A DNA stretch of 64,000 nt from an uncultured Planctomycetota bacterium (GCA_963752285.1 CAVVXN010000001.1:64001-128000), one strand, 5' to 3'; numbered from the stretch's first letter, positions 10,937-46,204 are shown. Numbers and translations: made by a program. Notes: generated by a model from the letters alone, not told the origin.

Positions 10937-10989
10937 TCTCACGCCCGACGGGAGGACGCCGGTCGGGTCGGCGCACGCGCCGAACGCGC

Positions 10990-28871: not shown

Positions 28872-29366
28872 TCACGGGTGCGACGGGGCCGCGTGGGCGA
28901 GGTCCCCGACGACGCGGATCGCGTGGTGGCCCGTGAGGCGCTCGACGGGGCTCCAGTCGATCCGGTCCGCGGCCCCGCGGGTCTCGCGGACCTCCAGGAC
29001 GCGACCGGGTGCCAACGGGAACGGCTCGGTGTGCCACACCCCCGCGTCGATCGACACGCCCTCCCCGGGGGCGGTCCTCAGCGCCGCGGCGCGCGGTCCA
29101 TCGGGCGTGACGACCAGCAACACGACGAGGAGCGGCGCGGGGCCGAGCGCGACGACCACGCGCTCGGTCGAGACGTGGCGCTCGAGCCTCTCGAAGCGAG
29201 GCGGCGCGGCCTCGAGGTTCGCGATGGACACCGTGACGCCGGCGGTCGCATCGAGGCGCAGGTGCCGGCCCGGGGCGAGCAGGCGCCCGTAGGGCCGGAG
29301 CGCCTCCGCGCTCGCGGGCACCACCTCGAGCCTCAGGTCGCCGAGAGCGCCCCGCGCGGCCACCAT
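28872..29366 (-). CDS. Ureidoglycolate lyase-like cupin
   Basis: EALRPYG, LERH..TE, GEGVSIDAGVWH. Confidence 0.7.
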   Translation of the reverse strand: MVAARGALGDLRLEVVPASAEALRPYGRLLAPGRHLRLDATAGVTVSIANLEAAPPRFERLERHVSTERVVVALGPAPLLVVLLVVTPDGPRAAALRTAPGEGVSIDAGVWHTEPFPLAPGRVLEVRETRGAADRIDWSPVERLTGHHAIRVVGDLAHAAPSHP

Positions 29367-29372
29367 CGCCGG

Positions 29373-31787
29373 TCACATGTCTACGGCGAGACTCGCGAAG
29401 AACGACAGGCCGGGCGCGGGCAGGCGGCTCGCCGGCGGCACGTAGCTCGCGTCGAAGAGGTTCGTCACGCCGAAGTTCAGGAACGCGTCGTGGTAGTCGC
29501 CGAAGTCGAGCCCGGTGCCCAAGAGCACTTCGCCCGTGACGTAGCTGTCGCCGCCCGTGTACCCGTGCTCCGCGTTCGACGCGCCGTAGACCGCCGCGTC
29601 GGCGAACCAGCGGCGAACTCGGTAGCCGCGCGGCTGCGGGACGGAGTACCGCGTACCGAGGCGCCAGAGGAGGGGCACGTTCGCGACGACCGAGGTGTCG
29701 GTGGACCGCGTCGTGCCGAACGACCCGTAGAGCTCGGCGCCCTCGAGCGTCCGCCAGGGCCGCCACGCGCCGGTCAGCTCGAGCCCGTAGAGCGTTACGT
29801 CGCCGACGTTGTCGAGCTCCGCCGTGGGGCCGAGGATCGGCGCGATCTCCCGCTCGCCGATGAAGTCGTGGACGTAGTGGCCGAAGCCCGCGACCTGGAA
29901 GGAGCCGCAGTCCCCGACCGAAGCCTTGAGGCCGGCCTCGCCGTTCACGTTGAGCTCGGGGTCGAGGTCCGGGTTGCCGAACACGAGGCGGCCGTTCACC
30001 ACCGTGGTCGCGTTGCGCTCGTCGAGCGTGGGTCGCCGCCACCCGCCGGAGGCGTTGGCGTACGCGGTGAGCCACGGACGCAGGTGCCGTGCGACGCCGC
30101 CGGCGCCGCCCACCAGGACCTTCGTGATGCTCTGGTCCACGCGGTTGTCGGAGTTGTGGTAGACGTCGACGCGGATCCCCGCGTGCGTGTCCCAGCACTC
30201 GGAGTGCGACTGGTCCTCCACGAGGAGGCTCGCAAACCACTCCTCGGCCGTGTAGCGCCGCGTGAGCTGGGTGCCGAAGCCGATCGTCTGGAACGTGCGT
30301 CCGTCGAGGAGCTGCGCCGCCAGGATCGAGCTCGAGTCGTCCGCGAGGACGCCGTCGCCGATCTTCGGGGCCGTCGTCGGCTGGCAGCACTGCGCCGTGT
30401 CGCCGATGATCGTCTCCTGGCGCTTCAGCCGCGCATAGCCGACGGTCAGCTCGGCCCACGTGTCGTGGCAGGGGAAGAGGTACAGGTTGCCCTGCAGGTT
30501 GAACTGGTAGCGCTTCGCGTCGTCCTGGCCCCCGATGCCGGTCGAGTAGCCGTAGAACGAGTCGTCGGTTTTGGCGAGGAACGAGTCGAGCGCGATCGAC
30601 GCCTTCGTGCCCGTGAACACGCCGCCGAGGTCGAACGAGGTGAACGAGAGCGCGAGGAAGAACCGGTCGTAGTCGGGGACGGGGCCGCCGGGTCCGATCG
30701 CCGTCGGGCTGTGTACGTCGTAGCCCTTCACGTACTGCGCCGTCACGCCGATCCGGCTGCGGTTGTCGATGAAGTAGTCGAGCGCGAGGTCCGCGGCCCA
30801 CGACCGGTACGAGGACTCGTCGAGGATCGAGCCGTCCCCCAGGAGACGGTCGCCGCGGCGTGTCCACGTCCCGCCGACGAGGGCGGCGATGCGGTCGCGA
30901 CCGACGTCGGCCTCGGCGCGGCCTCGAATGCCGCGCGTCGCGGAGTCGTAGCCCACCGCGCCGCCGACGTCGGCCGAGAGGCAACCGTGCCGGCGCGGGC
31001 GCCGCGGGACGATGTTGATCATGCCCCCCGGGCTGTCGAGCCCCTTCAGGTACACGCCCGGACCGTGGTACAGCTCGACCCGCTCCGTGGACTCGACGTC
31101 CCAGAGCGTGAGCGAGGAGCCGAGGAGGCCGAGCACGTCGCTCGTCGGCCACACGCCGTCGGTCAGCACCTTCACCCGCGTCCCGCCGAGGCCGCGGATC
31201 ACGGGGAGCTCTAGGAACGGGTTCCCGTTGTCGGCCACGATCACGTTGGGGAGGCGGCGGGCGATGTCGCCGATGTCCATGGGCCGCCACTCGGTGAGGT
31301 CGTGGCGTTCGATCACGTCCACCCACTGCGGGACGCGCTTCACGGGCTTCACCCGGGCGTCCATCGACACCTCGCGGATGTCGTGGCGATAGAGGATCGG
31401 CCGCGGCGTGAACGGGTCGGGGGGCGGCAGGGGCGGGCCGAGGCCCACGCCGCGGCTGCGGAAGTCCTTGTCCCAGTCCCCGGGCGGCGGGGGCGGCTCG
31501 GGGGGCCGCTCGCGCACGTCCGGCCCGGGCCCGCCGGTCGGGGGCACGGGCGGGAGCGCATCTTCGGGACCGCCCGGCTCGGGCGGACGCTCGCGGGTGT
31601 CGGGCGAGGGGCCCTCGTCGGCCGGCCCCGCGTCCGGAGCCGGCGGCGGAGGCGGCGGCGCGGGCACGGCGGCGGCGGGCGGCGTTTTGGCCGGGGCGTC
31701 GTCGGCGCGCGCGACGCCCGGATGGACGAACGCCGCTCCCATGCCGACCATCACGATCCACCACCACCGCGGACGCGGGAACCTCAT
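29373..31787 (-). CDS. TonB-dependent receptor
   Basis: Plug motifs IRGLGG.RVKVLTDG and ERVELYHGPG..GGMINIV; GNPDLDPE, GVTNLFD..Y. Confidence 0.88.
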   Translation of the reverse strand: MRFPRPRWWWIVMVGMGAAFVHPGVARADDAPAKTPPAAAVPAPPPPPPAPDAGPADEGPSPDTRERPPEPGGPEDALPPVPPTGGPGPDVRERPPEPPPPPGDWDKDFRSRGVGLGPPLPPPDPFTPRPILYRHDIREVSMDARVKPVKRVPQWVDVIERHDLTEWRPMDIGDIARRLPNVIVADNGNPFLELPVIRGLGGTRVKVLTDGVWPTSDVLGLLGSSLTLWDVESTERVELYHGPGVYLKGLDSPGGMINIVPRRPRRHGCLSADVGGAVGYDSATRGIRGRAEADVGRDRIAALVGGTWTRRGDRLLGDGSILDESSYRSWAADLALDYFIDNRSRIGVTAQYVKGYDVHSPTAIGPGGPVPDYDRFFLALSFTSFDLGGVFTGTKASIALDSFLAKTDDSFYGYSTGIGGQDDAKRYQFNLQGNLYLFPCHDTWAELTVGYARLKRQETIIGDTAQCCQPTTAPKIGDGVLADDSSSILAAQLLDGRTFQTIGFGTQLTRRYTAEEWFASLLVEDQSHSECWDTHAGIRVDVYHNSDNRVDQSITKVLVGGAGGVARHLRPWLTAYANASGGWRRPTLDERNATTVVNGRLVFGNPDLDPELNVNGEAGLKASVGDCGSFQVAGFGHYVHDFIGEREIAPILGPTAELDNVGDVTLYGLELTGAWRPWRTLEGAELYGSFGTTRSTDTSVVANVPLLWRLGTRYSVPQPRGYRVRRWFADAAVYGASNAEHGYTGGDSYVTGEVLLGTGLDFGDYHDAFLNFGVTNLFDASYVPPASRLPAPGLSFFASLAVDM

Positions 31788-31975
31788 CGGTCCGTGGTCC
31801 TCCCTCGGCCCTCGCCCGGACCGCCTGGGGTCGAGCGTATCGGGCCCCGGCCCGCCCCGCAACGCGCGCTGTGGCGTGCACGGGGGCAACGGGGGTCCCA
31901 CCCACGGCGGGAATGTCCCCGAGCGGTCACGGACGCCCCGGCGGGGCGGTCCGGGGGAGGCCGGGGCGGGTTCGC

Positions 31976-33361
31976 TCAGCGCCGGCGGCGGGCGGGCTTG
32001 TGCCAGCGGGGGATCCCGCTCCCGGGCTCGGAGGGCGCGGGCTCCTCCACCGGCACCGGCCGCGGCTGCGGCTGCGGCGGCTCGAAGCCCGGGAACCGCT
32101 TCTGCTCGATCTGGCGGTTGATCAGCTTCTCGATGGACGTCAGGAAGGGGCCGTCGTTCGGGGTGACCAAGGTGACGGCCCACCCCTTTTCCCCCATCCG
32201 GGCGGTGCGACCGACGCGGTGGACGTAGTCCTCGGGGTTCTCGGGGATGTCGTAGTTGAAGACGTGGTCCACGCCCTGGATGTCGAGGCCCCGCGCGGCG
32301 ACGTCGGTCGCCACGAGCAGCTCGAGGCGCCCCTCGCGGAAGTCCGCGAGGATCGCCTCGCGCTGCCGCTGGGGCAGCCCGCTGTGGATCTCGTGCGCGT
32401 CGAAGCCCTCGCGCGAGAGGGCGTACGCGACCCGGTCGGCGGTGAAGCGGGTGCGCGTGAACACGATCGTGCGCCTCGGCTCGCGCTGTCGGAGGATGGC
32501 GATCAGGAGCTCGCGCTTGCGGTCGTGCGGGACGACGTAGAAGACCTGGTCCACCTCGTCCACGGTGAGGGTCCGGCTCTCGATCTCGACCCGATCGTGC
32601 TCCTGGAGGTGGCGGCGGATCAGGGCCTCCACGTCGTCGTTGAGCGTCGCCGAGACGAAAAGGCTCTGCTTGCGACCGCTGCACGCGCGGAGGATCCGGT
32701 CGATGTCGTCCCGGAAGCCGAGGTCGTACATGCGGTCCACCTCGTCCAGCACGAGGCGCTCGACCTTCCCCGCGTCGAACGTGCCGCGGCCGATGTGGTC
32801 GAGGAGCCGACCCGGGGTACCGACGACGACGGCGGCCTTGGGGATCCGCACGAAGTCGCTCCGAAGGCGCGTCCCGCCGTAGATGCAGGCCACGCGGAGG
32901 GGCAGGTGCTTCGCCAGCCGTTCGGCCTCGCCGGCCACCTGCATGGCGAGCTCGCGGGTGGGCACGACGACGAGCAGGCGCACGGGTCCGTGCGGCGGCG
33001 TCGAGGCGGGGGCCCGGGCCTCGTCGAGGAGGGCGAGACAGGGAAGGAGGAAGGCTGCGGTCTTGCCCGTTCCGGTCCGCGAGCGCGCGACGACGTCTCG
33101 CCCCTCGAGGGCGAGGGGGATCATGCGGGCCTGGACTTCGGTCGGGGTCGTGTAGGCGGCCTCGTGGACCGCGAGATTCAGGGGCCGGGGGAGGTCGAAC
33201 TCGTCGAAGCCGGACGTCTCGGGGTCGCCGGAGGGTTCGGCGGCCGGCACCGGCTCGGGCCGTCCGGCGCCGGTCCCGCGCCGGCGACGACGCCGGCGAG
33301 ACCGCCCCGAGGATCCGACGTCCTCCGTCTCCCGGCCTTCGGGAAGCGGATCGGATGTCAT
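31976..33361 (-). CDS. DEAD-box RNA helicase
   Basis: Q motif, TGTGKT, PTRELA, TPGR, DEVD, SAT, ARGLD, HRVGRTAR. Confidence 0.95.
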   Translation of the reverse strand: MTSDPLPEGRETEDVGSSGRSRRRRRRRGTGAGRPEPVPAAEPSGDPETSGFDEFDLPRPLNLAVHEAAYTTPTEVQARMIPLALEGRDVVARSRTGTGKTAAFLLPCLALLDEARAPASTPPHGPVRLLVVVPTRELAMQVAGEAERLAKHLPLRVACIYGGTRLRSDFVRIPKAAVVVGTPGRLLDHIGRGTFDAGKVERLVLDEVDRMYDLGFRDDIDRILRACSGRKQSLFVSATLNDDVEALIRRHLQEHDRVEIESRTLTVDEVDQVFYVVPHDRKRELLIAILRQREPRRTIVFTRTRFTADRVAYALSREGFDAHEIHSGLPQRQREAILADFREGRLELLVATDVAARGLDIQGVDHVFNYDIPENPEDYVHRVGRTARMGEKGWAVTLVTPNDGPFLTSIEKLINRQIEQKRFPGFEPPQPQPRPVPVEEPAPSEPGSGIPRWHKPARRRR

Positions 33362-33430
33362 CGGGGCCGATCGTACCCGGAGCGGAGTAGGGCAGGTGGT
33401 ATAAGGGCCGCCCCGACCGAAATCCGCCGC

Positions 33431-33520
33431 GGAGAGGTGGCAGAGCGGTCGAATGCACCGGCTTGCTAAGCCGGCGTACCCGTCAGGGTACCCCGGGTTC
33501 GAATCCCGGCCTCTCCGCCA
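33431..33520 (+). tRNA. tRNA-Ser (anticodon GCT)
   Basis: GGAGAGG acceptor stem, CCGGC-TTGCTAA-GCCGG anticodon arm, long variable arm, TTCGAATC, CCA end; 90 nt. Confidence 0.97.
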
Positions 33521-33720
33521 CTCCTTCGACTCCCGACCCGGATTTTCGCTGTTCGCCGCGCGCGGACCGTGCGCGCGGGCACGGCAAGGGGAGTTGGGGC
33601 CTACCTCCCCCGCACCCCTAACTCCTTCGACTCCCGACCCGGATTTTCGCTCTTCGCCGCGCGCGGACCGTGCGCACGGGCGCGGCAAGGGGAGTTGGGG
33701 CCTACCTCCCCCGCACCCCT
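33521..33720. repeat. Two near-identical ~100-bp tandem units directly after tRNA-Ser
   Basis: 33521-33619 and 33622-33720; each has CGACTCCCGACCCGGATTTTCG and a GGGGAG..CTCCCC hairpin. Confidence 0.92.
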
Positions 33721-33743
33721 CACGCGCCCCTCGGGGAGGGGGC

Positions 33744-34550
33744 TCAGCGACGTTCGACCCGTAGCACGTTGTGCGTCTTGAACGGCCGGTCGTCCGTGCC
33801 CGCGGCGTCCCAGCCCCGGTCGCTCTCGATCCAGAGCTCGACCGCGCCGTTCGTGACGAGGCCGTCCTCGCGGGAGAGGACGAAATGGGCCTTCACGCTC
33901 GTCTTGGCCTCACGCACCCAGTCGGCGACCGCCTGCGCCTCCGGCTCGACCTGCGGGATGACCACGGCGCCCGTGCCGGAGAGCACGACCTCCTCGGAGC
34001 GCACGGCTTCCACGTGCAACGTGAGCATCAAGCCCAGTGGCATCGGCAGGCCGTCGAGGGCGTCCGGGACGTCCCAGGTCGCCGCGGCCTCGGGGATGTC
34101 GCTCTCCGAAAGAGGGCGAAGACGCGCCGCGAGCCACGCGGCCGGGGAGACGAGGTCACCTGTTCCTACGCCGCCGCGACGCACCTGGTAGCCCACGGGG
34201 CTGACGAAATCCGACACGTCGTCGATCCGCCCGTCCGCTCCGAGGGTGAAGGTGAACGTGCTCTCCTTCACGCCCGGGGACGTCGGCAGGCGTTTCCACA
34301 CCACGCGTCGGCCGCCGTCCCCAGCGGCCGTCGCGGTCAACGAGACGTCGGCGGTCCACGAGAGCTCGCCGTGCTCGCTCGGTCCGCGCCGGCTCTCCTG
34401 CTTCCAGTCGAGGTGGTAGGTACGGACCGCGCCGTCGGGAAGGGAGACGGGCAGGCGGAGGAACGGCGCGGGGGGAGGCGTGGCACGACCACAGGCGGGC
34501 AGGAGCAGCGCGAGCAGGAGTGTTCCCATTGCAATCGATCGGTGGTGCAT
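33744..34550 (-). CDS. Hypothetical lipoprotein
   Basis: LLLALLLPAC lipobox-like signal; start at 34550 or 34529. Confidence 0.7.
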   Translation of the reverse strand: MHHRSIAMGTLLLALLLPACGRATPPPAPFLRLPVSLPDGAVRTYHLDWKQESRRGPSEHGELSWTADVSLTATAAGDGGRRVVWKRLPTSPGVKESTFTFTLGADGRIDDVSDFVSPVGYQVRRGGVGTGDLVSPAAWLAARLRPLSESDIPEAAATWDVPDALDGLPMPLGLMLTLHVEAVRSEEVVLSGTGAVVIPQVEPEAQAVADWVREAKTSVKAHFVLSREDGLVTNGAVELWIESDRGWDAAGTDDRPFKTHNVLRVERR

Positions 34551-34597
34551 ACCGCGATCTCCCCTGCAGCGCGTAGGGGACAGAGGGTAGGCGCGTC

Positions 34598-34834
34598 CGA
34601 CTCCCGACCCAGATTTTCGACATTCCCCACGAGCACGATCCATCCGCCCTTCCCCCGATCCCCTCCCAAGCCGGAATCTTGCTCTTCGCCGCCGGGGCCC
34701 CCACGCGTTCCCCGCCTTGGGATCAGGCTCTCCAGGCGTCGCAGTCCTCGCGGAGAGCCGCGTGCAGGACCCGTGCCGACCGCTCGGCGTAGAGCCCGTC
34801 CTCCCCGAGCCGCCGCACGGGGAGCCGGGCCCGC
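34598..34834. repeat. Diverged direct copy of the transposase 3' end plus downstream flank (partner 38784-39046)
   Basis: Alignable by eye over ~240 bp with scattered substitutions. Confidence 0.92.
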
Positions 34835-34995
34835 TTCGATTGGGGCGTGGCGGCGGTGCTGGGTCACGTAGCCGCAGAGACCGTCGGTCCCCACGATCAT
34901 CACCGTCGCCGTGTTCGTGCCGCCTCCGCCGCCGCAGCCCGCCAGGGCGAGGCCGGCACACAGTCCGAGCCGAGCCCGAGCAGCGTACTCCGCAT
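34835..34995 (-). pseudogene. Frameshifted, truncated lipoprotein gene fragment
   Basis: GAGAGG + ATG MRSTLLGLG, then a shifted frame LGLCAGLALAGCGGGGGTNTATVMIVG cut off at the repeat. Confidence 0.55.
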
Positions 34996-35507
34996 GTGCC
35001 TCTCGCGGCAGGCGGCATCGACGTGGCCGCGTTCCGCCGCCCCGCCGAGGCGGCGAGGATGCGGGGGCAGCCGACGTACCGTCAAGGGCAATCGGCCGTC
35101 GCCGTCGGAGGGTGCGCGGGGTACGGAGGCAGGCACCACCGGCGCGGGCGCCGTGTGGCTCTCGAACCGCGTCCGCACTCTCGCCGATCCCACCCGGAAG
35201 GCCTTGGATCCCGAAGCACAGATCGCCGGCTCCGGCTCCCGGCTTCGTGCCCGTGTGGCGTGCTGGTGAAGGCTGCGTTCCGGCGCGCAACGCAGAGAGC
35301 TGCACCTCGACTCCGTCCATTCTGGTGGGGACCTCTCGCCTCCGCGGCAGATCCCGGAGTGCGTCGGTCGGGCGCGCGCCGAGGCGGTGCCCTGGTCACG
35401 CCGCCTCGTCGTCTCGGCGCCGGGACGGACCGGCGCCGCGGGCGGGAGAGACGCCCAGGATCGGAAGGACGGGTCGGGAGCCGATGGGCGGGCGCTTGCG
35501 GAGTGGA

Positions 35508-38500
35508 CTACCTCTTCGCCTGCTCCAGGCACCACCGTTTGTTCTGCTCGAAGAGGCGCACGCCGGGGAAGCGTTCGATCGCGTGGTCGTAGACGGCGAT
35601 CGCGCCGTTCCAGTCCTTGGCGTCCGAGAAGGTCTTCGCCCACCGGTCCCAGATCGCGATGGCGTTCCCGCTCAACCGCCGGCTGTCCGGCGCGGCCGCG
35701 ATCCCGGCCGCGTACACGTCCACGGCTTCCTGCCAGTGGCCGGCGTCCGACAGGCTGCGGGCCCAGGTGTCGTAGAGCGCCTCGGCGGCCTCCCGGTGGG
35801 CCGCCGCGTCCGGGAGCAGGTCGGCGGCGCGGGCCAGGAAGGCGACGCCCTCTTCGCCCTTGCCCTGCGACGCCAGGGTCGCGAGCGTCTGCTGCACGCG
35901 ATTGCGCGCGGCCCGCTTCACGCCCTCGTCGTCGGGAAAGCGCTCGCGCATGGCCTGCAGGGCGACCAGCGCGGCTTCAGGGTCCGCGGCCTGCGCGGCC
36001 CACTGCTGCGTCAGCCAGGCGACGTTTCTCACGAGCGTGCGCTCGCCGGGGACCTTCTCGAGCCCCTTCACGTACACGTCCGCGGCCTGCTCCCAGTGCC
36101 CCGCCGACATCTCGGCGCGGGCCCACGCGTCGTAGACGAACGCGTAGAGGTCCGTGGCGTCCTTGGCCTTCGTGAAGAGCGCGCGACCGCGGTCGAGCGC
36201 GTCGATGGCCTCCGCATGCTTGCCGGCGCGGACGAGGTCGTTCACCTGACGCCTCAGCTCGTTGGCGCTGGTGCTGGCGACGCGGTCCATGTCGGGGAAG
36301 AGCTGCTTCAGCTTCGCCTGGACCTCGGCGGCCTCGTCGGCCCCGCCGTGCGCGTAGGCGGCGCGCGTCCACTCCTGGGCGAGGTAGGCCGTGTTCTGGC
36401 GAAGGAGCCGGTCCTGGGGGAAGCGCCCCAGCGCGCTCGCGTAGACCTGGGCGGCCTCCAACCACGCTTTGGCGGCCATCTTCCGTTTCGCCCAGAGGTC
36501 GAACACGTTCACCGCGAGCGCGTCGCGATCCTTCCCCGCGGGCAGGAGGTCGCCGGCGGACTCGATCACGGCGAGCGCCTCCTCCTCCTTCCCCTCTTTC
36601 GCCAGCGCGAGCGCCACGCGCTGCACGTGGCTCGCCCCCACCAGCGCGATCGACGGCACGGCCGGGAAGCGTTCCCGCAGCGCGCGCAGCAGGTCGAACG
36701 AGGCGGCGGGGCCGCTCTGTCTCGCGCGCGCCCGGGCCCACTCCTGGGCCAGGTAGCCGGCGTTCTGCCGCAGCGCCGCATCGTCGGGAATCGCCGCCAG
36801 GCCCTGCTCGATCACCTGCGCCGCCGCGTCGTAGTGGCCCTGCCGCACCTCGGAGGTGAACCAGCGCGCGTAGAGCGAGGACCGCCACGACACGATCTCG
36901 TCCCGCGCTCCGCCCTCGAGACGATCCAGGCCGGGAAGCGCCGCTGCCAGCGCCTCGGTCCAGTGCGACTCCCTCACCAGCTTCTCGGCGCGCTTGAGGA
37001 AGACCCAGGACCGCAGGTCGCCGAATCCGGCGTCGGGCACCGCCCGGGCGGCACGGCCGAGGATCGCGAGCGCGTCGTCCACGTGGCCGGCGTCGATCGC
37101 GTCGTTCGCCCATCCGCTCCAGATCGCGCGCTGGTTGTTCCGAAGCAGCGCGTCCTCGGGCGCGAGGGCCAAGCCCGTTTCCACCACCTCGAGCGCCTGC
37201 TCGTACTTCCCGCCCTTCTGGAGCTCGACACCCCAGTTCGCGAGCACGGCCAGGGCATTCTTCACCGCGGAGCCGAACTCCTCGTCGAGGCTCATCGCGC
37301 GGAAGTACTCCATCAGCGCCTCGTGGTAGCGCTTCTCCTGGCCCAGCCTGACGCCGTGGTTGTAGTAGATGATCGCGGCGAGGCCTGCCTCCCGCACCTC
37401 GCGCCGCTGGTCCCGGTGCGCGTCCGGGATGTAGCGGAAACCGGTGAGCGCCTGGACCTTCGCGGCGACGGCCGGATCGCGTGCGGGGTTGAAGCCCTGC
37501 GGCGTCGTCGTCTCCACGTCCATGTGATTCGTGCCCTCGTAGAGGATCGAGAACGCGTGCGTGGGCACCTCGATCGCCCGGGCGTCGAGCCCCAGGCCCA
37601 GGGCGAGGACGTTGAAGAGCGTGGCGGACGAGACGCAGTTGAAGGTGCCGGTGTCGAGCACGGTGGAGAGGTCGGTCTGGTTCGCCACGTAGCCCTTCGA
37701 CATGGGGCCCGCGTGCATCCACTTCAGCAGGGCCTCGCCCTTCGCCGCGGGCGTCTTCGCGGAGGCGACGGCCTCCCTCGCCTGCTCCTCCAGCTCGTCG
37801 AGCCGCGCGACGTAGGCCTTCCGGCGCGCGGGGTCCGTCACGCCAGATGCGAGCAGCGCCGCCTCCTCGAAGAGCGCGCGATCCAGGCGACCCTGTCGCG
37901 CGCGATCGAAGAGCGCTCGCTCGTCGGGCGCGATCGAGGGGTGCAGCGATGTCGTCTTCTCCAGGCGGGCGAGGACGTCGAACGCGCGGGCCGGGGACTC
38001 GCCGAAGGCGTACCGGCTCTTCGGCTCCCCCTCGAACCCGAGCACCTCCACCTCGGCGGCGGCGACGCGGGTCGCGCCGGCTGCCGGCGTGAGCCGCACG
38101 AGGATGAATCGCGCGGCGATCGGCGGGAAGGGGAAGAGCCTGGGCCGTCCGGCGGCGTCCAGCGGGTCCGCCCGCACCGAGGTGAAGCCCGCGTGCGCGG
38201 AGACCGTCGAGACCAGGACCTCGACCCGCGCGGCCGGCGCCTGGGAAGCCCTCGCGTCGGGAAGCGTCACGCGCACGCCTTGCGGCGCGACCTCTGCGTC
38301 GCCGAAGCCGTAGACGACGTCGAGCGTCGTGCCAGGCGCGACGGCGACCTCGGCGACCGTGTCGGACTTTCCGTCTGCCAGCGCGGCGACGGAGGCCGCT
38401 TCGCCGCCGAACGCCGTGGTCGCGACGACCGAGGCCGCCGGCAGCCTGAGGAGGTCGACCGGCTTCTCCTCCTCCGCGCGCGCCGCACGCGGCAGCAGGC

Positions 38501-38567
38501 TCAGGAGCGCGAGGGCGAGCGCCGCGCCCGGCAGAACGAGACGAGCCCGGGCCAGCACGCGGATCAT
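35508..38567 (-). CDS. Exported protein: discoidin-like domain + transglutaminase-like domain + TPR array
   Basis: Signal ending ARA; GTFNCVSS, PTHAF, DVETT; repeated LRQN.AYLAQEW helical units. Confidence 0.8.
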   Translation of the reverse strand: MIRVLARARLVLPGAALALALLSLLPRAARAEEEKPVDLLRLPAASVVATTAFGGEAASVAALADGKSDTVAEVAVAPGTTLDVVYGFGDAEVAPQGVRVTLPDARASQAPAARVEVLVSTVSAHAGFTSVRADPLDAAGRPRLFPFPPIAARFILVRLTPAAGATRVAAAEVEVLGFEGEPKSRYAFGESPARAFDVLARLEKTTSLHPSIAPDERALFDRARQGRLDRALFEEAALLASGVTDPARRKAYVARLDELEEQAREAVASAKTPAAKGEALLKWMHAGPMSKGYVANQTDLSTVLDTGTFNCVSSATLFNVLALGLGLDARAIEVPTHAFSILYEGTNHMDVETTTPQGFNPARDPAVAAKVQALTGFRYIPDAHRDQRREVREAGLAAIIYYNHGVRLGQEKRYHEALMEYFRAMSLDEEFGSAVKNALAVLANWGVELQKGGKYEQALEVVETGLALAPEDALLRNNQRAIWSGWANDAIDAGHVDDALAILGRAARAVPDAGFGDLRSWVFLKRAEKLVRESHWTEALAAALPGLDRLEGGARDEIVSWRSSLYARWFTSEVRQGHYDAAAQVIEQGLAAIPDDAALRQNAGYLAQEWARARARQSGPAASFDLLRALRERFPAVPSIALVGASHVQRVALALAKEGKEEEALAVIESAGDLLPAGKDRDALAVNVFDLWAKRKMAAKAWLEAAQVYASALGRFPQDRLLRQNTAYLAQEWTRAAYAHGGADEAAEVQAKLKQLFPDMDRVASTSANELRRQVNDLVRAGKHAEAIDALDRGRALFTKAKDATDLYAFVYDAWARAEMSAGHWEQAADVYVKGLEKVPGERTLVRNVAWLTQQWAAQAADPEAALVALQAMRERFPDDEGVKRAARNRVQQTLATLASQGKGEEGVAFLARAADLLPDAAAHREAAEALYDTWARSLSDAGHWQEAVDVYAAGIAAAPDSRRLSGNAIAIWDRWAKTFSDAKDWNGAIAVYDHAIERFPGVRLFEQNKRWCLEQAKR

Positions 38568-38783
38568 CGGATTCCCCCCGTCTCGGCCACCTCGCCAGGG
38601 CCGAGGTCGCGCGGGAGGCCGCGGGCTCCCGGCCCGGTCCGTCGCAAGGGTCGCCGGCCCGTCCGGACGAGGACCGACCTGCCCCCGCCGAACGGGCCCG
38701 ATCCTACGTCGTGGCCCCACCGCCCACCAGGGCCAGCCGAGGGCGGACTGCCGTGCGCGCGCGAGTCGTCGCCCCTTCACCTT

Positions 38784-39046
38784 CGACTCCCGACCCAGAT
38801 TTTCGACATTCCCCACGAGCACGATCCATCCGCCCTTCCCTCGATCCAATCCCAAGCCGGAGTTTCGCGCTTCAATCCCAAGCCGGAGTTTCGCGCTTCG
38901 CCGCCAGGGCCCCCACGCATTCCCCGCCTTGGGATCAGGCTCTCCAGGCGTCGTAGTCCTCGCGGAGAGCCGCGTGCAGGACCCGGGCCGACCGCTCGGC
39001 GTAGAGCCCGTCCTCCCCGAGCAGCCGCACGTGGAGCCGGGCCCGC
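38784..39046. repeat. Second copy of the ~240-bp duplication, with an internal 26-bp tandem duplication
   Basis: CAATCCCAAGCCGGAGTTTCGCGCTT at 38847-38872 and 38873-38898. Confidence 0.9.
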
Positions 39047-39900
39047 CTCTGGACGGTCGAGACGGAGGCCCGCACGCCGTGGGCGATCTCCCGGATGGAG
39101 AGTGCACACGCGTGGCGTAGGAGCCCGACGCGAAGCACCTCCCACGCGTCGATGCTCCGGCGCCCGGGCGCCACGCGCCAGAGCGGGGCCTCTTCCTCGG
39201 CGCGGTCCAGAGCGCGTTTCAAGGTCGCGGGAAGTACCAACACGCGCGCGGCGAGCACGCCGTCGGCACGGCGGGCTCTGTCCCCGAGCCAGCGTTGGAC
39301 GTGAGCGGGCTTCGCCAGCAGCAGCTCGTCGAGGTCGACTTCGTCTGGCGTCGGGGAGCGAAGCCAGGCTCGCACCAGACGAATCGGAACGGTTCGGCCA
39401 TTGCGAACCGCCGGATCGAGTCGTTGGCCGAAGTCGCGGGCGAGCCAGGGACGTCCTCTTCCGCGGGCGTAATCACGAGCACTCGAGAAGGGATAGGCTT
39501 CGGCGTCCGTGACGATGCCCGCTCGGACCGGGTTGTCGTGGATGTAGCCGATCACCGCACGACGATAGGCTTTCGTTAGGATGAGCTTCGCCCGGAACCT
39601 GCCACGAAAGAGCGGGCCGTCGCGATCGTGACGCAGGTTGAACCACCGGGCGTAGGCGTCTTCGATGCGCTGCAATGCGGCCGAGATGTCGCCGTGCGGG
39701 CTACGCACGAGCAGGTGGAAGTGATTGTCCATCAAGCAGTAAGCGTGGATCTCGAGTCGCTCTCGCCGGACCGAGCAGGCAAGTAGGGCCAGGAAACGCA
39801 GGAACTCGTGGCGGGACTCGAAGATCGCCCGCTGGGCGACCCCGCGGTTCGTGATGTGCCACCAGGCCCCCTCGAAGTCCCGTCGCAGGCGTCTCGGCAT
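38935..39900 (-). mobile_element. REP-associated tyrosine transposase (RAYT / Y1 HUH, IS200-like) with C-terminal HTH
   Basis: MPRRLR, WHITNRG, AYCLMDNHFHLL (HUH), YIHDNPVRAG (catalytic Tyr), YPFSS. Confidence 0.92.
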
Positions 39901-40075
39901 GATGTCTGCCTCCGAGGGGGGATCGCCCGACCTCCCGTCCTGGTCACAGGCGGGCGGTCGCGGATCACTCCCGGTGGGGGTCGCCGGCCGGAACCAGCCG
40001 CCGCGCGGGGCCGCACCGGTGGGGGTCAACCGATCCGGTCGGCCAAGTCGAGGTCGTCAGCCGCCGGCCCGGGGC

Positions 40076-40181
40076 CCGGGCGGTGCGGGCCTGAAGAGCG
40101 AAAATCTGGGTCGGGAGTGGATCGATCGGGCCGGGCGGTGCGGGCCTGAAAGTCGATAATCTGGGTCGGGAGTCGATCGAT
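40076..40181. repeat. Two ~55-bp tandem units carrying the inverted 22-nt motif
   Basis: CCGGGCGGTGCGGGCCTGAA..AATCTGGGTCGGGAGT.GATCGAT occurs twice. Confidence 0.88.
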
Positions 40182-42069
40182 GCGGATGCGGGTGGTTGTT
40201 GTCTTTCTGCTCGTTCTCGGGGCGTCCGGTGCGGCCGGTGCGCCCGACGGCTCGCCGGTGGGCGCGCGCCTGTCGGTGTTCGGCGAGGGCGGCGGTCCGG
40301 CGGTCGAGGGCGACGTCTTCCACCTGCTCGACGCGGCGAAGTCCCCGCGGCAGTCGAACGCGCTGGCCTTCGACCGCGCCGACGAGGGCGCGCGGGACCG
40401 CGTGACCCTCCGGTGCCGGATGCGCGTCCTCGCGGGGGGTGACGGCGGCTCGTACCTCTTCCTGAACACGGCGGAATACGGCGTCCGCGGCCCCGCGCCG
40501 TTCCTGCCGAGCGTCGTGGAGCCGAACCTCCGCCGCTCGTTCGCGGTGGGTATCGACGTCCACGACCCGCCGAGCCAGGAGGTGTTCACCCCGTGGGGCA
40601 ACTACCAGGACCTCCCGCAACGCGAGGTCTCGCTCCACTGGGACGGGCGCGAGATCGTGAAGCGCGTCTCGCCCGAAGAGTTCCGCGGCGACGACGCGGA
40701 GGTGGAGATCACGCTCCGGATGGTCGTCGGCGGGGCCGAGGCGACGGTGCGAATCGGCGAGGGCACCGTCTACGACGCCTACTTCGTGCCCGGCGTCACG
40801 CCCTACGAGACACGCCTCGCGATCGCGGCCGGCACGCGTTCCGACGCCACGACGACCTTCGACGTCTCCGACGTGGCGTTCACCGTCGGGGCGCCGGCGC
40901 GGCCGACACGCCGGCCGCACCACGTCGCGGTCTTCAACCACGTCCTCACGGACAACCGGAAGACCGCGTTCGACGAGGAGGTCACGCTCCCCCCCGCGGA
41001 GTTCGCGTTCGGCCGCGTGCTCATGACGATCGACATCCACGACGCCGGACCCGACTGGGACGAGTGGGACCGGAACGGCGAGGTCTCGGTCTGGACGAAG
41101 GACGGCGAGAAGCTCCCGATCGTCTCCTTCATCACGTCGTACCGAACGCCGTGCCACTGGGTGGTGGACGTCACACACCTCCGCCCGCTCCTCTCCGGCA
41201 CGACCCGACTCGAGATCGCGGCGGGGACGACCTTCTACAAGAACCGCGGCTTCATGATGAGCCTGGCGCTCGATTTCTGTCCCGGCACCGCGGACCCCGA
41301 GCCCTGGCGCGTGGTCCCGGTGTGGGTCGGGACCGCGCACCATGGACCGCCGGACAACCACTTCCAGGACTTCTTCGTCCCGCGGACCGTCGCGATCCCC
41401 GCGGAGGCGACGGCGGCCCGGCTCGTCGTGACGACGACGGGCCACGCCCAGGTCGGCGAGTTCACGCCCTCGCGCCGCACGATCGTCTTCACCCCCGACG
41501 TCGCCGCCTCCCCATCGGTCGAGCGCCGCTTCGAGAGCGCCCTCTGGAAGACCGACTGCTACCTGAACCCGAACCGCCCCCAGTTCGGGACCTGGCAGTT
41601 CTCGCGCGCCGGGTGGGCCCCGGGCGACGTCGTCCGGCCGTGGTGGATCGACCTGGCGCCCGACCTCCAGCCGGGCAAGGAGGCCGGGCTCCGATACGAG
41701 ACCCAGGCGTACGACTTCTCGGGGCAGGACGAGAAGCCGACGGAGAAGCAGGTCGCCGAGGCCTCACAGGTGGTCCGCGCGTACCTGATCCTGTACCGCG
41801 CCCCCTCCGCGCAGGTCACCCCCCCCACCCTCCTCGTCGCCGACGTGGCCAGGGGCAGCCACGCCGAGGGCGCCGGCGTACAGGCGGGGGACTACCTCTC
41901 GTCGTACGACGGGAAGCCCGTGGACTCGCTCGACGACCTCCGCGCTGCGCTGAAGGCCGCGGAGGCCGCGGGAGAGAAGGAGGTCCGGATCGTGCTCTAC
42001 CGCGGCGCCGAGCGGGTGGAGCTGACCCTGCCACCGGGCCGCATGGGCGTCAGCCTCACGGGGGAATGA
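40180..42069 (+). CDS. Exported PNGase F-like protein with N-terminal lectin-like and C-terminal PDZ domains
   Basis: DEWDR, FITSY, WVVDVT, TTTGH, GTWQFSRAGW.PG; PDZ-like GSHAEGAGVQAGD. Confidence 0.75.
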   Translation: MRMRVVVVFLLVLGASGAAGAPDGSPVGARLSVFGEGGGPAVEGDVFHLLDAAKSPRQSNALAFDRADEGARDRVTLRCRMRVLAGGDGGSYLFLNTAEYGVRGPAPFLPSVVEPNLRRSFAVGIDVHDPPSQEVFTPWGNYQDLPQREVSLHWDGREIVKRVSPEEFRGDDAEVEITLRMVVGGAEATVRIGEGTVYDAYFVPGVTPYETRLAIAAGTRSDATTTFDVSDVAFTVGAPARPTRRPHHVAVFNHVLTDNRKTAFDEEVTLPPAEFAFGRVLMTIDIHDAGPDWDEWDRNGEVSVWTKDGEKLPIVSFITSYRTPCHWVVDVTHLRPLLSGTTRLEIAAGTTFYKNRGFMMSLALDFCPGTADPEPWRVVPVWVGTAHHGPPDNHFQDFFVPRTVAIPAEATAARLVVTTTGHAQVGEFTPSRRTIVFTPDVAASPSVERRFESALWKTDCYLNPNRPQFGTWQFSRAGWAPGDVVRPWWIDLAPDLQPGKEAGLRYETQAYDFSGQDEKPTEKQVAEASQVVRAYLILYRAPSAQVTPPTLLVADVARGSHAEGAGVQAGDYLSSYDGKPVDSLDDLRAALKAAEAAGEKEVRIVLYRGAERVELTLPPGRMGVSLTGE

Positions 42070-42133
42070 CCTCTCCCCGCGTGGCGTTCCGCCTCTCGCT
42101 TTGGACGTACACTCCTTTGCCGAGGAGGCACCC

Positions 42134-42583
42134 ATGTCGAAGCTGCCGCGCCCCAAGGGGCACCACACGATCACGCCGGGGTTCGCCGTCGAGCACGCCT
42201 CCGACGTGCTCTCGTTTCTCCAGAAGGCATTCGGGGCGAAGGTCGTCGATCGCTACGACGGGCCGGGCGGCGCGATCATGCACTGCGAGGTCATGCTCGG
42301 CGACTCCTCCGTGATGTTCGGCCAGGCGATGCCGGGCTACGACCCGATGCCCGCCTCGCTCTCGTACTACGTCGACGACGCGAAGGCCGTCGATGACACG
42401 TACGCGCGGGCGATCGCCGCCGGCGCCCAGTCGGTCATGGCCCCGAAGAACCAGTTCTACGGCTACCGCTCCGCGACCGTGAAGGACATGGGCGGGAACA
42501 AGTGGACGATCTGCGCCGTGATCGAGCAGCTCACGAAAGAGCAGATCGAAGAACGCATGGCCGCCATGCCGAAGGGCGACTGA
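42134..42583 (+). CDS. VOC/glyoxalase-family protein (PhnB-like)
   Basis: HTITP, F.QKAFGA, IMHCEV, QFYGYR...VKD.GGNKW; GAGGAGG RBS. Confidence 0.9.
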   Translation: MSKLPRPKGHHTITPGFAVEHASDVLSFLQKAFGAKVVDRYDGPGGAIMHCEVMLGDSSVMFGQAMPGYDPMPASLSYYVDDAKAVDDTYARAIAAGAQSVMAPKNQFYGYRSATVKDMGGNKWTICAVIEQLTKEQIEERMAAMPKGD

Positions 42584-42609
42584 CGCGCGGCCGAGCGTGG
42601 CGTGCCGGC

Positions 42610-43559
42610 GTGACCCTCGCACCCCTCCCGCCCGCGGTCCCCGTCTTCGGACGGCGGCGCGCGGGCTGCTCGTACCGGTCCCGGCCCTCCGCGTACGCCC
42701 TGCTGCGGGACCGTGAGGGGCGCATCGCCGTGGTGGTCACGCCGCGGGGCGTCCACCTCCCCGGTGGAGGATACGAGGGCGGGGAGCGCGCCGAGACGGC
42801 GGTGGTTCGGGAGGTGAGGGAGGAGGCGGCCTCTTCGTCGAGGTCGTCCGGCCGCTCGGCCGGGCCGTCGAGCACCTCGAGGCCGAGCGCGAGGGACGGT
42901 TCTCGGTGGACGCCCGCTACTTCGAGGTCCACCGCGTCGCGGCCCGCGCCGACGCTCCGACCGAGCCGGACCACGCGACCTCGTGGCTCCCCGCGGGCGT
43001 GGCCATGCGTCGCGTGCTGCGGCGGAGCCACGCCTGGGCGATCGCTCGGTTCGCGATGTCGCCCGTCGCGGCGATCGGAAGAGACGCGCGTCCCCCGACG
43101 CACGTGCGTGCCTTCACACACGACGACGCGCCCGCGTGCGAGGCGGTCCTCCGCGCGCTTCCGGAGTGGTTCGGGATCGAAGAGGCGCTCCGCGGGTACG
43201 TAGAGGCCCTCGATCGCCCGCCGGCCCGGGTCGCGGAACGAGACGGTTCGATCGTCGGCTTCGTCCAGTGGACGCGCGCGCGGGAGGAGGACGCCGAGAT
43301 CCACGTCCTCGCGGTCCGGCCCGAATGCCGCGGCTCGGGGGTCGGTCACGCGCTGCTCGTGGCGGCGGAGGCGGCGCTCTCGGCCGAAGGCGTGCGGACG
43401 CTTCGCGTGAAGACGCTCGGCCCCTCCCGCCCGGATGCCCACTACGCCCGCACACGCAGCAGCTACGAGCGCTGGGGCTTCTTCGCGACGGGCGAGTCGC
43501 GCAGGGAGTGGGGGCCGGAGAATCCCTGCCTCACGATGGAGAAGTCGCTCGAGCGCTGA
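42610..43559 (+). pseudogene. NUDIX hydrolase-GNAT acetyltransferase fusion with a 1-nt frameshift near 42828
   Basis: Nudix box [21 protein letters not shown](G)L is completed by adding one G; the next frame carries GNAT RGSGVG and VKTLG. Confidence 0.7.
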
Positions 43560-43663
43560 CGGCGATCGGACCCCTCGTCGCCGTACTTCGACATCGACGG
43601 CCGGCGTCGCCGGTATCCTCGGTGTCCTACCCCCTCGGGCCCGGACGGCCCACGGCGAGCCCC

Positions 43664-44389
43664 ATGGGACGGATCTTCGAGAAACGCAAGACGACGATGT
43701 TCGCCCGGTGGGACCGGGTGTCGAAGCAGTTCTCCCGCATCGCGAAGGAGATCGCCATCGCCGTCAAGTCGGGCAGCGCCGACCCCGTCGCGAACCCGTC
43801 CCTCCGGCGCGCGATCCAGAACGCGCGCGCCGCGAACATGCCGAAGGACAAGATCGAGAACGCGATCCGCCGCGCGTCGGGCCACGACGGGGTCGCGTAC
43901 GAGGAGATCCTGTACGAGGGCTACGGCCCCCACGGCATCGCGATCCTCGTGGAGGCCGCCACCGACAACCCGACCCGCACCGTCGCGATCGTGCGCAGCG
44001 CGTTCAAGGCCCACGGCGGAAACCTCGGCGCGACGGGCAGCGTCGGGTTCCAGTTCCAGCGGATGGGCGTCTTCCGTGTCGATGCCCACGCCGTCGAGGA
44101 CGCCGACGCACTCGAGCTCGACATGATCGACCACGGGCTGGAGGAGATGCGCGAGGGCGAGGGAGAGAAGGGCGAGCCCCAGCTGATCCTCCGTTGCGGC
44201 TTCGGCGACCTGGGGAACCTGCAGAAGGCGCTCGAGGAGCGCGGCATCCACCCGGTGTCGGCGGGCTCCGAGTACCTCTGCCGGAACCTCATCGAGCTGC
44301 CCGGGGACCAGGCGAACGAGGTCCTCGCGCTGGCGGACGCGCTCGAGCAGGACGACGACGTCCAGCACGTCTTCACCGCGCTCGCCTGA
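43664..44389 (+). CDS. YebC/PmpR-family protein
   Basis: [34 protein letters not shown]. Confidence 0.95.
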
Positions 44390-44428
44390 CCGCGAGGGGA
44401 ACGCGACGCGCGTGCGCGGTCCCCGCGA

Positions 44429-46204
44429 CTAGTCGAGCACCTCCCCGTCCGCGTCGGGGAGGTGTCCCCGGTCCGAGCTCATCGGCGACGACTCCGCAGC
44501 ATCGAGCAGGACGTCCACGACGAACGGGCCCTTGGCCGCCAGCGCCCGCTCGAGCGAAGGGGCGAGATCCGTCTCCGACGTGACCGTCGCACCATCCGCG
44601 CCCAGGCTCCGCGCGAACGCGACGAAGTCCGCTCGCGGGATCTCCGTCTCCCCGGGCGCGGAAACGTCCGCGCGGACGCTCGTCGCGGAGGCACGCCGAC
44701 GGGCCTCGTTCAGCACGATCCACACGGCACGCGCCCCCGCGCCGAGGGCCGTCCGGATCTCCTGCCCCTCGAGCATCGAGCGCTCGTCCACCACCGCGAC
44801 GGCCGGGCCACCCCGGCCGAGGGCCGCGCCGACCACGCCACACGCCATGCGTCCTCGCGAGCCGGCTGTCGCGCCCGCGCGGTAGCGCCGCGGTCGATCG
44901 AAGCGGAGGTGATGGTTCGCCCACGCGAACGCGGGACCCGACTCGGACAGCACGACCGCGTCACTGCGCTCGACCACGACGTGCTGCACCGCATCCATCA
45001 ACGCCTGCGGTCGGACCGCGCCCTCCTCGCGGAGATCGACGGCGAGAGGATGGACCGGGAGGGAGGACCGCGGCGAAGGCCCGGCCTCGCGAAGACACGG
45101 CAGGAGCTCCCGCAGGAAGGCGCTCACGTCCGCCTGGATCCCGAACGTGGGTACGTGCGGGTAGGCGGCGCCGAACACCGCCGGGTCGAGGTCCACGTGC
45201 ACGACGCCGCCGGGCGGGACGCGCCGGCGATCCCACTGCGACGTGAGCTCGCCGAGCCGCGTACCGAGAACGAGCAGGCGTCCGGGCCGCTCCCGTTCCA
45301 GGAACGAGAGGGCCGACGCATGCCCGCCGACTCCCGTGACCCCCACGAAGAGCGGGTGGGACTCGGGGAACACGCCCTTTCCGCGCGGCGAGCACATCAC
45401 GCCGGCTCCGGTCCGCTCGGCCACGGACCGCACGAGTGGCGACGCGTCGCGCGCGCCGGCCCCGACCCAGATCGCGAACCCCGCCCTCTGCAGGAGCAGA
45501 GCGGCGCGACGCGCGTCCGCGTGGGCCACCGAGGGAACCGCGACGTCGATCGGCGCGTCGAGCGAGAGGGCCACGCGATGCGCGTCCACGGAACGCGCCT
45601 GGCTCGACGTCGGGACGGAGACGTGGGCGACGAAGCGATGCCGCCCGGCCAGGCCGACGAGCAGGCGTCGAACGACCTCGGGCAGGTCGTCGCCTCCCAA
45701 CACCGGCACGGCGAGGTCGAAGAGGTGCGTGTCGTGAAGCGCCCCCTGGACCGCGGCGTACGGGCTCGTCTCCCCGGCGGCGCCGCGTCCCCACTTCGAG
45801 ACGCCCGTCGAGGACGAGAGCAGGACGAGCTTCGCGCGGTCCGCGCGGGCCGCGGCCACCCCGGGCAGGGCCTCGAGGACACCGTGGTCCGCGGCGACCA
45901 CGACCGCCGCGGGCCTGCCCGTCGCGTGGTGGTGCTCGAGCGCGGCGAACACCGCGCCGCCGGCGTCGCGCAGCGGCACGAAGTCGATCGCCGAGCGCGC
46001 GACCGCTTCGTAGAGCGGGCCGCGCGTCCCGTCCCGGGCCCCGAACACGCGCCCGACCCCTGCGCGGCGCAGCCCCTCGACCAGCGCCGCCGCGACCGTG
46101 ACGGTCCGCGCCGGTGCCCCCCGAGACGGCTCGGCTCGACCCGTCTCCCGTTCCCGGCCTGGCCGCGCTCGCGTATCGAGGGAGTCCGTACGGGTCACCG
46201 ACAT
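44429..46204 (-). CDS. ThDP-binding acetolactate-synthase-like protein with degenerate motifs
   Basis: KGVFPESHPLFVGVTG, LVLGTRLGE, HVDLDP, GPFVVDV; lacks the GDG motif and conserved Glu. Confidence 0.8.
   Translation of the reverse strand: MSVTRTDSLDTRARPGRERETGRAEPSRGAPARTVTVAAALVEGLRRAGVGRVFGARDGTRGPLYEAVARSAIDFVPLRDAGGAVFAALEHHHATGRPAAVVVAADHGVLEALPGVAAARADRAKLVLLSSSTGVSKWGRGAAGETSPYAAVQGALHDTHLFDLAVPVLGGDDLPEVVRRLLVGLAGRHRFVAHVSVPTSSQARSVDAHRVALSLDAPIDVAVPSVAHADARRAALLLQRAGFAIWVGAGARDASPLVRSVAERTGAGVMCSPRGKGVFPESHPLFVGVTGVGGHASALSFLERERPGRLLVLGTRLGELTSQWDRRRVPPGGVVHVDLDPAVFGAAYPHVPTFGIQADVSAFLRELLPCLREAGPSPRSSLPVHPLAVDLREEGAVRPQALMDAVQHVVVERSDAVVLSESGPAFAWANHHLRFDRPRRYRAGATAGSRGRMACGVVGAALGRGGPAVAVVDERSMLEGQEIRTALGAGARAVWIVLNEARRRASATSVRADVSAPGETEIPRADFVAFARSLGADGATVTSETDLAPSLERALAAKGPFVVDVLLDAAESSPMSSDRGHLPDADGEVLD

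Follow-up and report, generated by a model that had tools for sequence, protein, structure and literature searches.

Elements of the IS200/IS605 family are marked at their ends by subterminal hairpins, terminal inverted repeats being absent; their transposase, of about 130-150 amino acids (aa), has no helix-turn-helix (HTH) domain and is often accompanied by tnpB. REPtrons, as outlined by Ton-Hoang 2012 (PMC3333891), Messing 2012 (PMC3479197) and Bertels 2017 (PMC5581495), consist of a RAYT (TnpA_REP) gene together with REP/BIME or REPIN sequences. RAYT-like genes with long terminal inverted repeats were given the name TIRYT, and the units that contain them the name TIRtron, in a paper that describes the repeats as moderately abundant families occurring as singles, dimers and clusters (Di Nocera 2013, BMC Genomics 14:522, PMC3733652). 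Twenty of 26 TIRYTs were later assigned to TnpA-Y1 subclass 2.1 (Quentin 2018, BMC Genomics 19:475, PMC6006769), which is characterized there by long proteins whose C-terminal domain is Bac_DnaA_C, HTH_23 or HTH_28, and by the absence of REP; going by these accounts, the TIRtron/TIRYT class probably corresponds to this subclass. Here we analyse a stretch of 64,000 nucleotides (nt) from an uncultured Planctomycetota bacterium (GCA_963752285.1, CAVVXN010000001.1:64001-128000; referred to as the window), in which a Y1 transposase gene, situated near a tRNA-Ser gene, is bracketed by copies of a 22-nt motif.

The locus is very probably a TIRtron, that is, a small unit resembling an insertion sequence (IS) at 38784-40175, with one TIRYT gene and terminal inverted repeats of about 30 nt, of which the 22-mer is the core. 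The remaining motif copies can with good confidence be regarded as products of the same element, in the form of a truncated copy, solo and tandem repeats, and doublets. As far as the accounts in PMC3733652 and PMC6006769 go, this class of element has already been described, and the non-palindromic nature of the repeat is thereby explained in print. The accessory genes that lie between the copies are neighbours of repeats and not cassettes. The locus adds little that is new in kind, and it does not support a new gene-capture system, as had been proposed in an earlier note on this DNA.

With the described TIRtrons the locus shares a RAYT-like Y1/HUH protein about twice as long as the E. coli TnpA_REP and carrying a C-terminal domain of the DnaA_C/HTH type, long terminal inverted repeats around the gene in place of REP hairpins, and moderately abundant repeats that are found as singles, dimers and clusters. 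It differs from them in that the window repeat lacks GGGGWSAS, that the repeat family is small (16-19 copies) and belongs to one genome of the 41 searched (this one included), and that a truncated second copy and tandemly duplicated ends are present at the locus.

The similarity to REPtrons lies in the homologous Y1 nuclease, for which 4ER8 is the best solved match, in the inverted cognate repeats that flank the gene, in the existence of a separate repeat family for each paralogue, and in convergent doublets that fold as hairpins and are REPIN-like. A REPtron is expected to have a single-copy gene and an abundant population of repeats; one intact gene, one fragment and only 16-19 repeats were counted here, and low numbers, with 12-14 copies of flanking 16-mers, are given for RAYT Groups 1 and 4 (Bertels 2017, PMC5581495). 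In contrast to REPtrons, whose repeats are short imperfect palindromes with a conserved tag of the GTAG type, the single repeats of the window are not palindromes and GTAG is missing from both strands of the motif, the TIRYT protein has an extra DNA-binding domain and its score with the REP_Tyr_transpos model is under the cutoff, and the relatives with several paralogues, with truncated copies and, in genome G014, with duplicates present an IS-like picture, unlike that of a fixed single-copy gene. With IS200/IS605 elements (IS608, ISDra2) the locus has in common the Y1/HUH fold (the IS608 TnpA was matched by Foldseek with E of about 1e-3 and by VIA-align with Z 9.7) and the lack of a target-site duplication, which was seen at all three bounded elements in this genome and at both units in G014. 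The ends of the window element, however, are inverted repeats without a significant fold, and the element has one open reading frame (ORF).

The element and its repeats in the window

A pattern scan of the window with CGACTCCCGACCCRGATTTTCG gave four matches without mismatch on the + strand (33527, 33628, 34598 and 38784) and two on the - strand with 1 mismatch apiece (40099 and 40154). By chance 0.02 matches are expected, and six were reached in none of 100 shuffles; the positions and the orientation of the copies had been correctly described in the earlier note. The same holds for its statement that the copies are inverted about the transposase: inverted arms of 29 nt, which are 93% complementary (38783-38811 and 40148-40176, pair I1), stand on either side of the Y1 gene, and the segment 38784-40175 has a single ORF inside.

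The motif is not palindromic, as had also been noticed. Single units folded no better than shuffled sequence (z -1.3 to +1.4), and no hairpin significant against shuffled sequence was detected in any of them, both element ends and the 101-bp units included (z -1.3 and -0.7 for the latter). The window copies are embedded in larger repeats, namely two units of 101 bp, two of 55 bp and the duplicated left end of the element (Table 1). Outside the repeat itself the 101-bp units are unique in the genome except for a 35-nt match at C1:634523. No known RNA family was found at the motif copies, the tRNA being the only real Rfam match in the region. Every one of 18 stacked genomic copies has A or T at position -2, and 14 of the 18 have A or T at position -1 as well, against a genomic G+C content of 73%; with TT at +4 and +5 in most copies, the conserved unit proves to be longer than 22 nt.

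The extent of the element on its left side can be read from the truncated second copy. The segments 34598-34837 and 38784-39049 align with 228 of 266 columns identical and one gap of 26 nt; the first motif base is precisely where the homology opens, the sequences upstream of it being unrelated. Since the duplicate begins at the first base of the repeat, the tip of the repeat is a boundary of DNA that was moved or copied. By tblastn the truncated copy matches aa 284-321 of the transposase at 87%, and a profile search recovers the C-terminal 48 codons or so and nothing more; in 34838-35510, alignment and a six-frame profile search detected no trace of what is missing from this second copy of the transposase gene. 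The truncated element end opens a stretch of about 900 nt without coding signal (34570-35470), which is unusually long for this genome.

The repeat family in this genome and in relatives

In the whole genome (4.64 Mb in 5 contigs, 89% complete) the motif was found in 15 copies at up to 2 mismatches, 16 at up to 3 and 19 at up to 4, whereas the reversed control gave 0 copies at up to 2 mismatches. One of the matches with 4 mismatches lies inside a gene and is probably due to chance. The copies are clustered: six occupy 6.7 kb in the window (contig C1), five 9.4 kb on C2 and three 4.7 kb on C5, and outside the clusters there are a tandem pair 29 nt apart on C3 and two singles. The family includes two inverted doublets and three tandem pairs. 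The only Y1 transposase gene of the genome is that of the window, apart from the fragment at 34598-34837.

According to a gene call based on G+C content at the third codon position (GC3), which is crude and approximate, all copies with up to 3 mismatches are intergenic or lie at the extreme end of an ORF, and they occupy convergent, divergent and co-directional spacers. Given this mixture of spacer types, the copies are not tied in any consistent way to gene starts or exported proteins. Those outside the window are in ordinary intergenic DNA and in every orientation relative to genes. Within the window, the placement of copies upstream of three genes, as described in the earlier note, was confirmed: copy 34598 is 48 nt upstream of the gene start at 34550, copy 38784 is 217 nt upstream of the start at 38567, and copy 40154-40175 ends 5 nt short of the ATG at 40180. 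Copies 33527 and 33628 are downstream of two 3' ends and have no gene start behind them. The signal peptides of the three genes were judged by eye.

Two elements of 92 bp (C2:89838-89929 and C2:96238-96329), both intergenic, carry the motif at each end in inverted orientation. Each folds into a long hairpin (z -3.8 and -6.8), and over the full length the two share 84% identity; they look like miniature non-autonomous derivatives.

Some other members of the family have a particular setting. At C3:366670-366720 two copies 29 nt apart reach into the upstream ORF, covering its final codons in the gene call, and stop 14 nt short of the next ATG, which opens a gene whose start resembles a signal peptide; the C-terminus of the upstream gene may have been altered by this insertion. 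At C5:37222-37588 an inverted pair of diverged copies, 345 nt apart and with no gene between them, is in the spacer before a large kinase-like gene, and a third copy is 4.3 kb away. Near the C2 cluster, the segment C2:86314-86744 is 77-92% identical to three places in G001, a genome of the same genus; judged from these sequence matches, it may be another multi-copy element.

There were 0 copies of the motif in G001 and 0 or 1 in each of the other 39 relatives, which together gave three single matches, two of them with 3 mismatches. A solo copy with 1 mismatch is present in a genome of the same order (G035:C306; L105, 507-528), with no transposase homologue within 4 kb. TIRYT homologues were found in 34 of the 41 genomes (this one counted), at 33-51% identity; many of these genomes have several, and many of the homologues are truncated. 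A search of genome contigs for related loci yielded distant Y1-domain relatives from many phyla only, and none of these was used.

Eleven homologous loci were fetched. One of them is truncated by the end of its contig; in the other 10 the gene has an inverted repeat pair of its own, 29-61 nt long and directly beyond the ORF. From one paralogue to another these flanking repeats differ in sequence, with some relatedness here and there, and they are dispersed. In the closest homologue, with 51% identity, both ends carry CCACACCCGACCCGATTTTTCG. The repeat of the G015 locus is TTCRCWCCCGGYACHAATYGTG, and this cognate repeat occurs in 31 copies in G015, compared with 3 for the control. A shared core, ATACGGWRCCNGG, was counted 54 times in G037, 86 in G039, 11 in G022, 9 in G028 and 0 in G019, with 0-2 in the controls, and many of its occurrences are convergent pairs 70-100 nt apart. 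Taken together, the motif flanks the gene on both sides and is restricted to this genome, and the homologues in relatives have repeats of their own; it was thus rightly regarded as the cognate repeat of the transposase.

On contig C4 of G014 (L106) two TIRYT units of 1,319 bp, at 2406-3724 and 10524-11842, are 100% identical. They are 8.1 kb apart in the same orientation, are bounded by inverted repeats of 33 nt, and have unrelated flanks. These identical, repeat-bounded units indicate that this family of units has been copied whole, and recently.

The TIRYT protein, a possible mechanism and a regulatory alternative

The N-terminal part of the protein is a Y1/HUH nuclease domain with H60, H62 and Y119, and the C-terminal part, about aa 222-316, is an HTH domain similar to domain IV of DnaA. 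The assignment of the gene to the RAYT type, made in the earlier note, was upheld: in addition to the PF01797 match (Table 1), the best solved relative is the E. coli TnpA_REP (4ER8; E 3.2e-7 by sequence), with which the HUH and tyrosine motifs are aligned. The score with NF047646 (NCBIfam REP_Tyr_transpos) was 70.6 bits, under the cutoff of 80. Database proteins at E <=1e-10 numbered 442, the closest being 55% identical; many of them carry a RayT label, which comes from one source. Several homologues have C-terminal HTH families of Pfam (Bac_DnaA_C PF08299, PF13384, PF08281 and PF04545). An alignment of 44 sequences shows no change at H62, Y119 or S140, and H60 is conserved to at least 90%.

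An AlphaFold model built from this alignment had a pLDDT of 94.6 and a pTM of 0.89. Residues 1-181 of the model were superimposed by VIA-align on 4ER8 with Z 17.3 (157 residues aligned, root-mean-square deviation (rmsd) 2.6), and residues 222-316 on DnaA domain IV bound to a DnaA box with Z 11.4 (88 aligned, rmsd 2.5); a further match to DnaA domain IV had Z 10.8. In the Foldseek search 4ER8 was at the top, followed by the ISDra2 and IS608 transposases. The match to DnaA domain IV covers almost the whole domain and is well above the rows for sigma region 4 (Z 5-6); it is also in line with the Pfam labels that homologues carry.

Two side observations concern the protein and its presumed site. 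The transposase gene has a G+C content (GC) of 0.66-0.68 and a weaker GC3, compared with a GC3 of 0.92-1.0 in the neighbouring host genes, and its lower GC and GC3 fit weaker selection or a more recent arrival. In the inner part of the left repeat, TTTTCGACA agrees at 8 of 9 positions with TTWTNCACA, the DnaA-box consensus as quoted in PMC6006769, and in the inner part of the right repeat TTATCGACT resembles the same consensus. The DnaA-box likeness of TTTTCGACA, spotted by eye, is a lead only.

In the mechanism that we propose, the C-terminal DnaA-like domain would seat the protein on the repeat, whereupon one strand would be nicked and rejoined at the repeat tip by the HUH/Tyr119 centre. One-strand cut-and-rejoin chemistry of this kind is that of IS200/IS605 and TnpA_REP. 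In this way DNA bounded by repeats, either the 1.39-kb unit or the miniature doublets, could be moved without target duplications.

TIRYT elements were named in 2013, and in the literature searched the two works that mention them contain no bench test. What this locus offers is anatomy: an element tip set by the truncated copy, an A or T always 2 nt outside the repeat, two 92-bp elements with the look of miniature derivatives, a related unit recently duplicated in G014, and a confident protein model in which a Y1 nuclease is paired with a domain resembling a reader of DnaA boxes. These features are concrete substrates for biochemistry, directed at how a family of hairpin-reading enzymes came to inverted repeats.

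Several points weigh against the identification of the locus as a TIRtron and against its activity. GGGGWSAS, which is reported for many TIRYT repeats though not for all, is on neither strand of the window repeat; it is present in repeats of relatives, as in L006 (GGGGAGAG) and L004 (GGGGTCAG). The Z of 11.4 for the C-terminal domain is, by a warning of the tool, within the range where small helical domains may share a common arrangement, and by Pfam no significant HTH was found in the window protein itself (best E 0.13-0.16). The truncated copy could stem from a local duplication instead of transposition, and a single intact copy, as seen in the sequence of this genome, would not by itself demonstrate that the element is active. 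No transposition, binding or cleavage has been observed. Six runs of public reads held 5-12% of the sampled words, and four of them yielded short contigs of low depth; in the parts that they cover, these sparse metagenome contigs contained no trustworthy excision or circle junction, the joints being untrustworthy because their sides were at most 28 nt.

A further point is that the tandem direct copies and the sites beside gene starts would also fit a regulatory role. The single-copy TIRYT could then be an immobile, domesticated regulator, whose DnaA-like domain uses the repeats as operators for the adjacent exported-protein genes. There is one intact gene only, the C-terminal fold is known from binding of double-stranded DNA, the tandem direct copies (29, 55 and 101 nt apart in this genome, 32 nt in G015) are like arrays of binding sites, and several copies, such as those at 40154 and C3:366699, are just upstream of gene starts. 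Taking into account, however, that copies are also found between convergent genes and past 3' ends, that the hairpin doublets and the truncated element copy are footprints of mobility, that the catalytic His and Tyr are conserved across the 44 homologues, that G014 has identical copies of its element, and that the repeat, unlike a conserved regulon, is absent from the same-genus G001, we consider a domesticated regulator distinctly unlikely.

The tRNA-Ser flank and the neighbouring genes

The features of the locus are collected in Table 1. Three nt longer, the spans of four of its protein genes read 33744-34550, 35508-38567, 38935-39900 and 40180-42069.

Table 1. Features of the TIRtron locus and its surroundings, in coordinates of the window
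Feature	Position	Strand	Basis or remark
TonB-dependent receptor	29376-31787	-	
tRNA-Ser(GCT)	33431-33520	+	ARAGORN; Rfam tRNA, 60.7 bits
Pair of 101-bp units in tandem, with a repeat copy at the start of each (33527-33548, 33628-33649)	33520-33721	+	direct-repeat family D3, 96% identical
Orphan protein of 268 aa, lipoprotein-like N-terminus	33747-34550	-	no Pfam or NCBIfam match; moderate coding signal
Truncated second copy of the left end: repeat 34598-34619 and last ~40-48 transposase codons	34598-34837	+	
Stretch of ~670 nt with no coding signal and no transposase remnant	34838-35507		GC by codon phase; profile search; unique in genome
TPR protein of 1019 aa, signal-peptide-like N-terminus	35511-38567	-	Pfam TPR families, E down to 2.5e-17
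Intact TIRtron, 1,392 bp: left repeat, TIRYT gene, two right repeats	38784-40175	-	inverted pair I1; left boundary set by the duplicate
Left terminal inverted repeat, beside the 3' end of the gene	38784-38811	+	
26-nt tandem duplication in the left end, missing from the truncated copy	38848-38899	+	26-nt gap in alignment
TIRYT gene, 321 aa	38938-39900	-	PF01797, E 8.6e-8
Two tandem 55-bp units: inner right repeat 40099-40120, outer 40154-40175	40073-40181	-	direct-repeat family D5, 89% identical
Protein of 629 aa with PNGase-F-C-like and PDZ domains	40180-42066	+	Pfam

The tRNA gene ends at 33520 and the first motif copy follows 6 nt on, so that the copies do abut the 3' end of the tRNA, as the earlier note had it. 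Synteny with G001 extends from 27081 to 33521 of the window and stops at this 3' end. Beyond it, 33521-53000 has almost no match in G001, the best being 862 nt at 66% identity, and on the G001 side 0 of the 8 ORFs called in the right flank of the tRNA match this genome. The break is longer than 19 kb and is not bounded by motif copies. An invariant gene order, one of the findings on which the earlier note had let its proposal fall, was not what we saw: the order differs from that in the relatives, and the proposal therefore does not fail on this ground, but the break exceeds the span bounded by the motif.

Among the 40 relatives, homologues of the 268-aa protein gene were found in none and those of the TPR gene in two (G019 and G010), where they are beside neither the tRNA nor a TIRYT. 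The TPR gene has a host-like GC3 of 0.92-1.0, and its product has a weak match to Transglut_core (E 4.4e-4, below cutoff). The PNGase/PDZ gene is present in 4 of 5 relatives with 53-64% identity, always away from the tRNA-Ser gene, and in G004 and G007, where both were found, the two are on separate contigs; it is a conserved host gene outside the element. The flank of the tRNA-Ser gene is a variable, lineage-specific and gene-poor region in which repeats have accumulated and which has two accessory genes. A foreign island marked by composition was considered and rejected, GC being uniform (0.66-0.79) across the locus and lower in the transposase gene only.

These data bear on the suggestion that the locus is a hotspot of gene capture or shuffling, in which the repeats would act like the attC sites of an integron and the Y1 transposase would capture or shuffle cassettes at the flank of the tRNA-Ser gene. 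As in an integron, short repeats punctuate a run of accessory genes: there are motif copies at gene boundaries, the synteny with G001 stops where the first copy starts, and of the two genes between the copies one is an orphan and the other patchy, with homologues in 0 and 2 of 40 relatives. The absence of a tyrosine recombinase from the window, which the earlier note had asserted, was confirmed, since all 12 PF00589 matches of the genome are outside C1:64001-128000 (the nearest is C1:21215-21646); an integron would have an IntI next to the array, and there is none in the window. Nor are the repeats attC-like hairpins, the imperfect palindromes by which co-oriented, promoterless cassettes are bounded in an integron. 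The genes are on both strands, each with its own upstream region, no segment between repeats recurs elsewhere in the genome, and no cassette was seen at another place. The setting of the TPR homologues in G019 and G010 and the host-like codon composition of the TPR gene also speak against capture, as do the conservation of the PNGase/PDZ gene, the single occurrence of the tRNA 3' end in the window, the GC, uniform but for the transposase gene, the continuation of the loss of synteny for at least 13 kb past the last repeat with an equally unique flank in G001, and the position of the other 10-12 genomic copies in convergent, divergent and tandem spacers without a consistent relation to genes. 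We regard gene capture of this kind as very unlikely.

A weaker form of the capture idea is that the whole of 33527-40175 is, or was, one mobilisable composite unit by which the TPR gene and the gene of the lipoprotein-like protein came to the tRNA-Ser flank. The outermost copies are indeed inverted (arms 33526-33554 and 40093-40121, 90% complementary, pair I4), the synteny breaks at the left edge, the right edge is 5 nt from a conserved gene, and the genes carried would be accessory. However, no empty site was found, the tRNA-Ser and PNGase/PDZ genes being on different contigs in G004 and G007, the synteny with G001 does not resume at 40180, neither a second copy of the span nor a target duplication was seen, and the 3' end of the tRNA-Ser is not repeated in the window. 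Such a composite transposon appears very unlikely, and we give equally little credence to the event that it implies, a 6.65-kb composite (33527-40175) once moved by the TIRYT and carrying two accessory exported-protein genes to the tRNA-Ser flank. If true, TIRYT elements could pick up and relocate host genes. Under the TIRtron reading the mobile unit would be 38784-40175.

With regard to the tRNA itself, an att site derived from it was also tried and rejected: TTCGACTCCC in the repeat is T-loop-like, but by eye the motif has no matching T-stem. A search of the window for a second tRNA-Ser 3' end returned only the tRNA.

A scan of the metagenome for the repeat gave one match, on a contig of 40% GC without related genes, which was taken as chance. 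Two of the metagenome contigs touch the edges of the repeat array. Contig X3 (230 nt, depth 2.7) matches 33385-33520 exactly, that is, the tRNA-Ser and the 46 nt ahead of it, and continues beyond 33520 with AT-rich sequence unlike the window; either the tRNA flank varies between strains here or the contig is a chimera of the assembly. Contig X2 (240 nt, low depth, 5 differences) spans 39992-40225, from the right repeats to the start of the next gene, and has a 6-nt insertion, GATGCG, at 40178, which would add two codons to the start of this gene.

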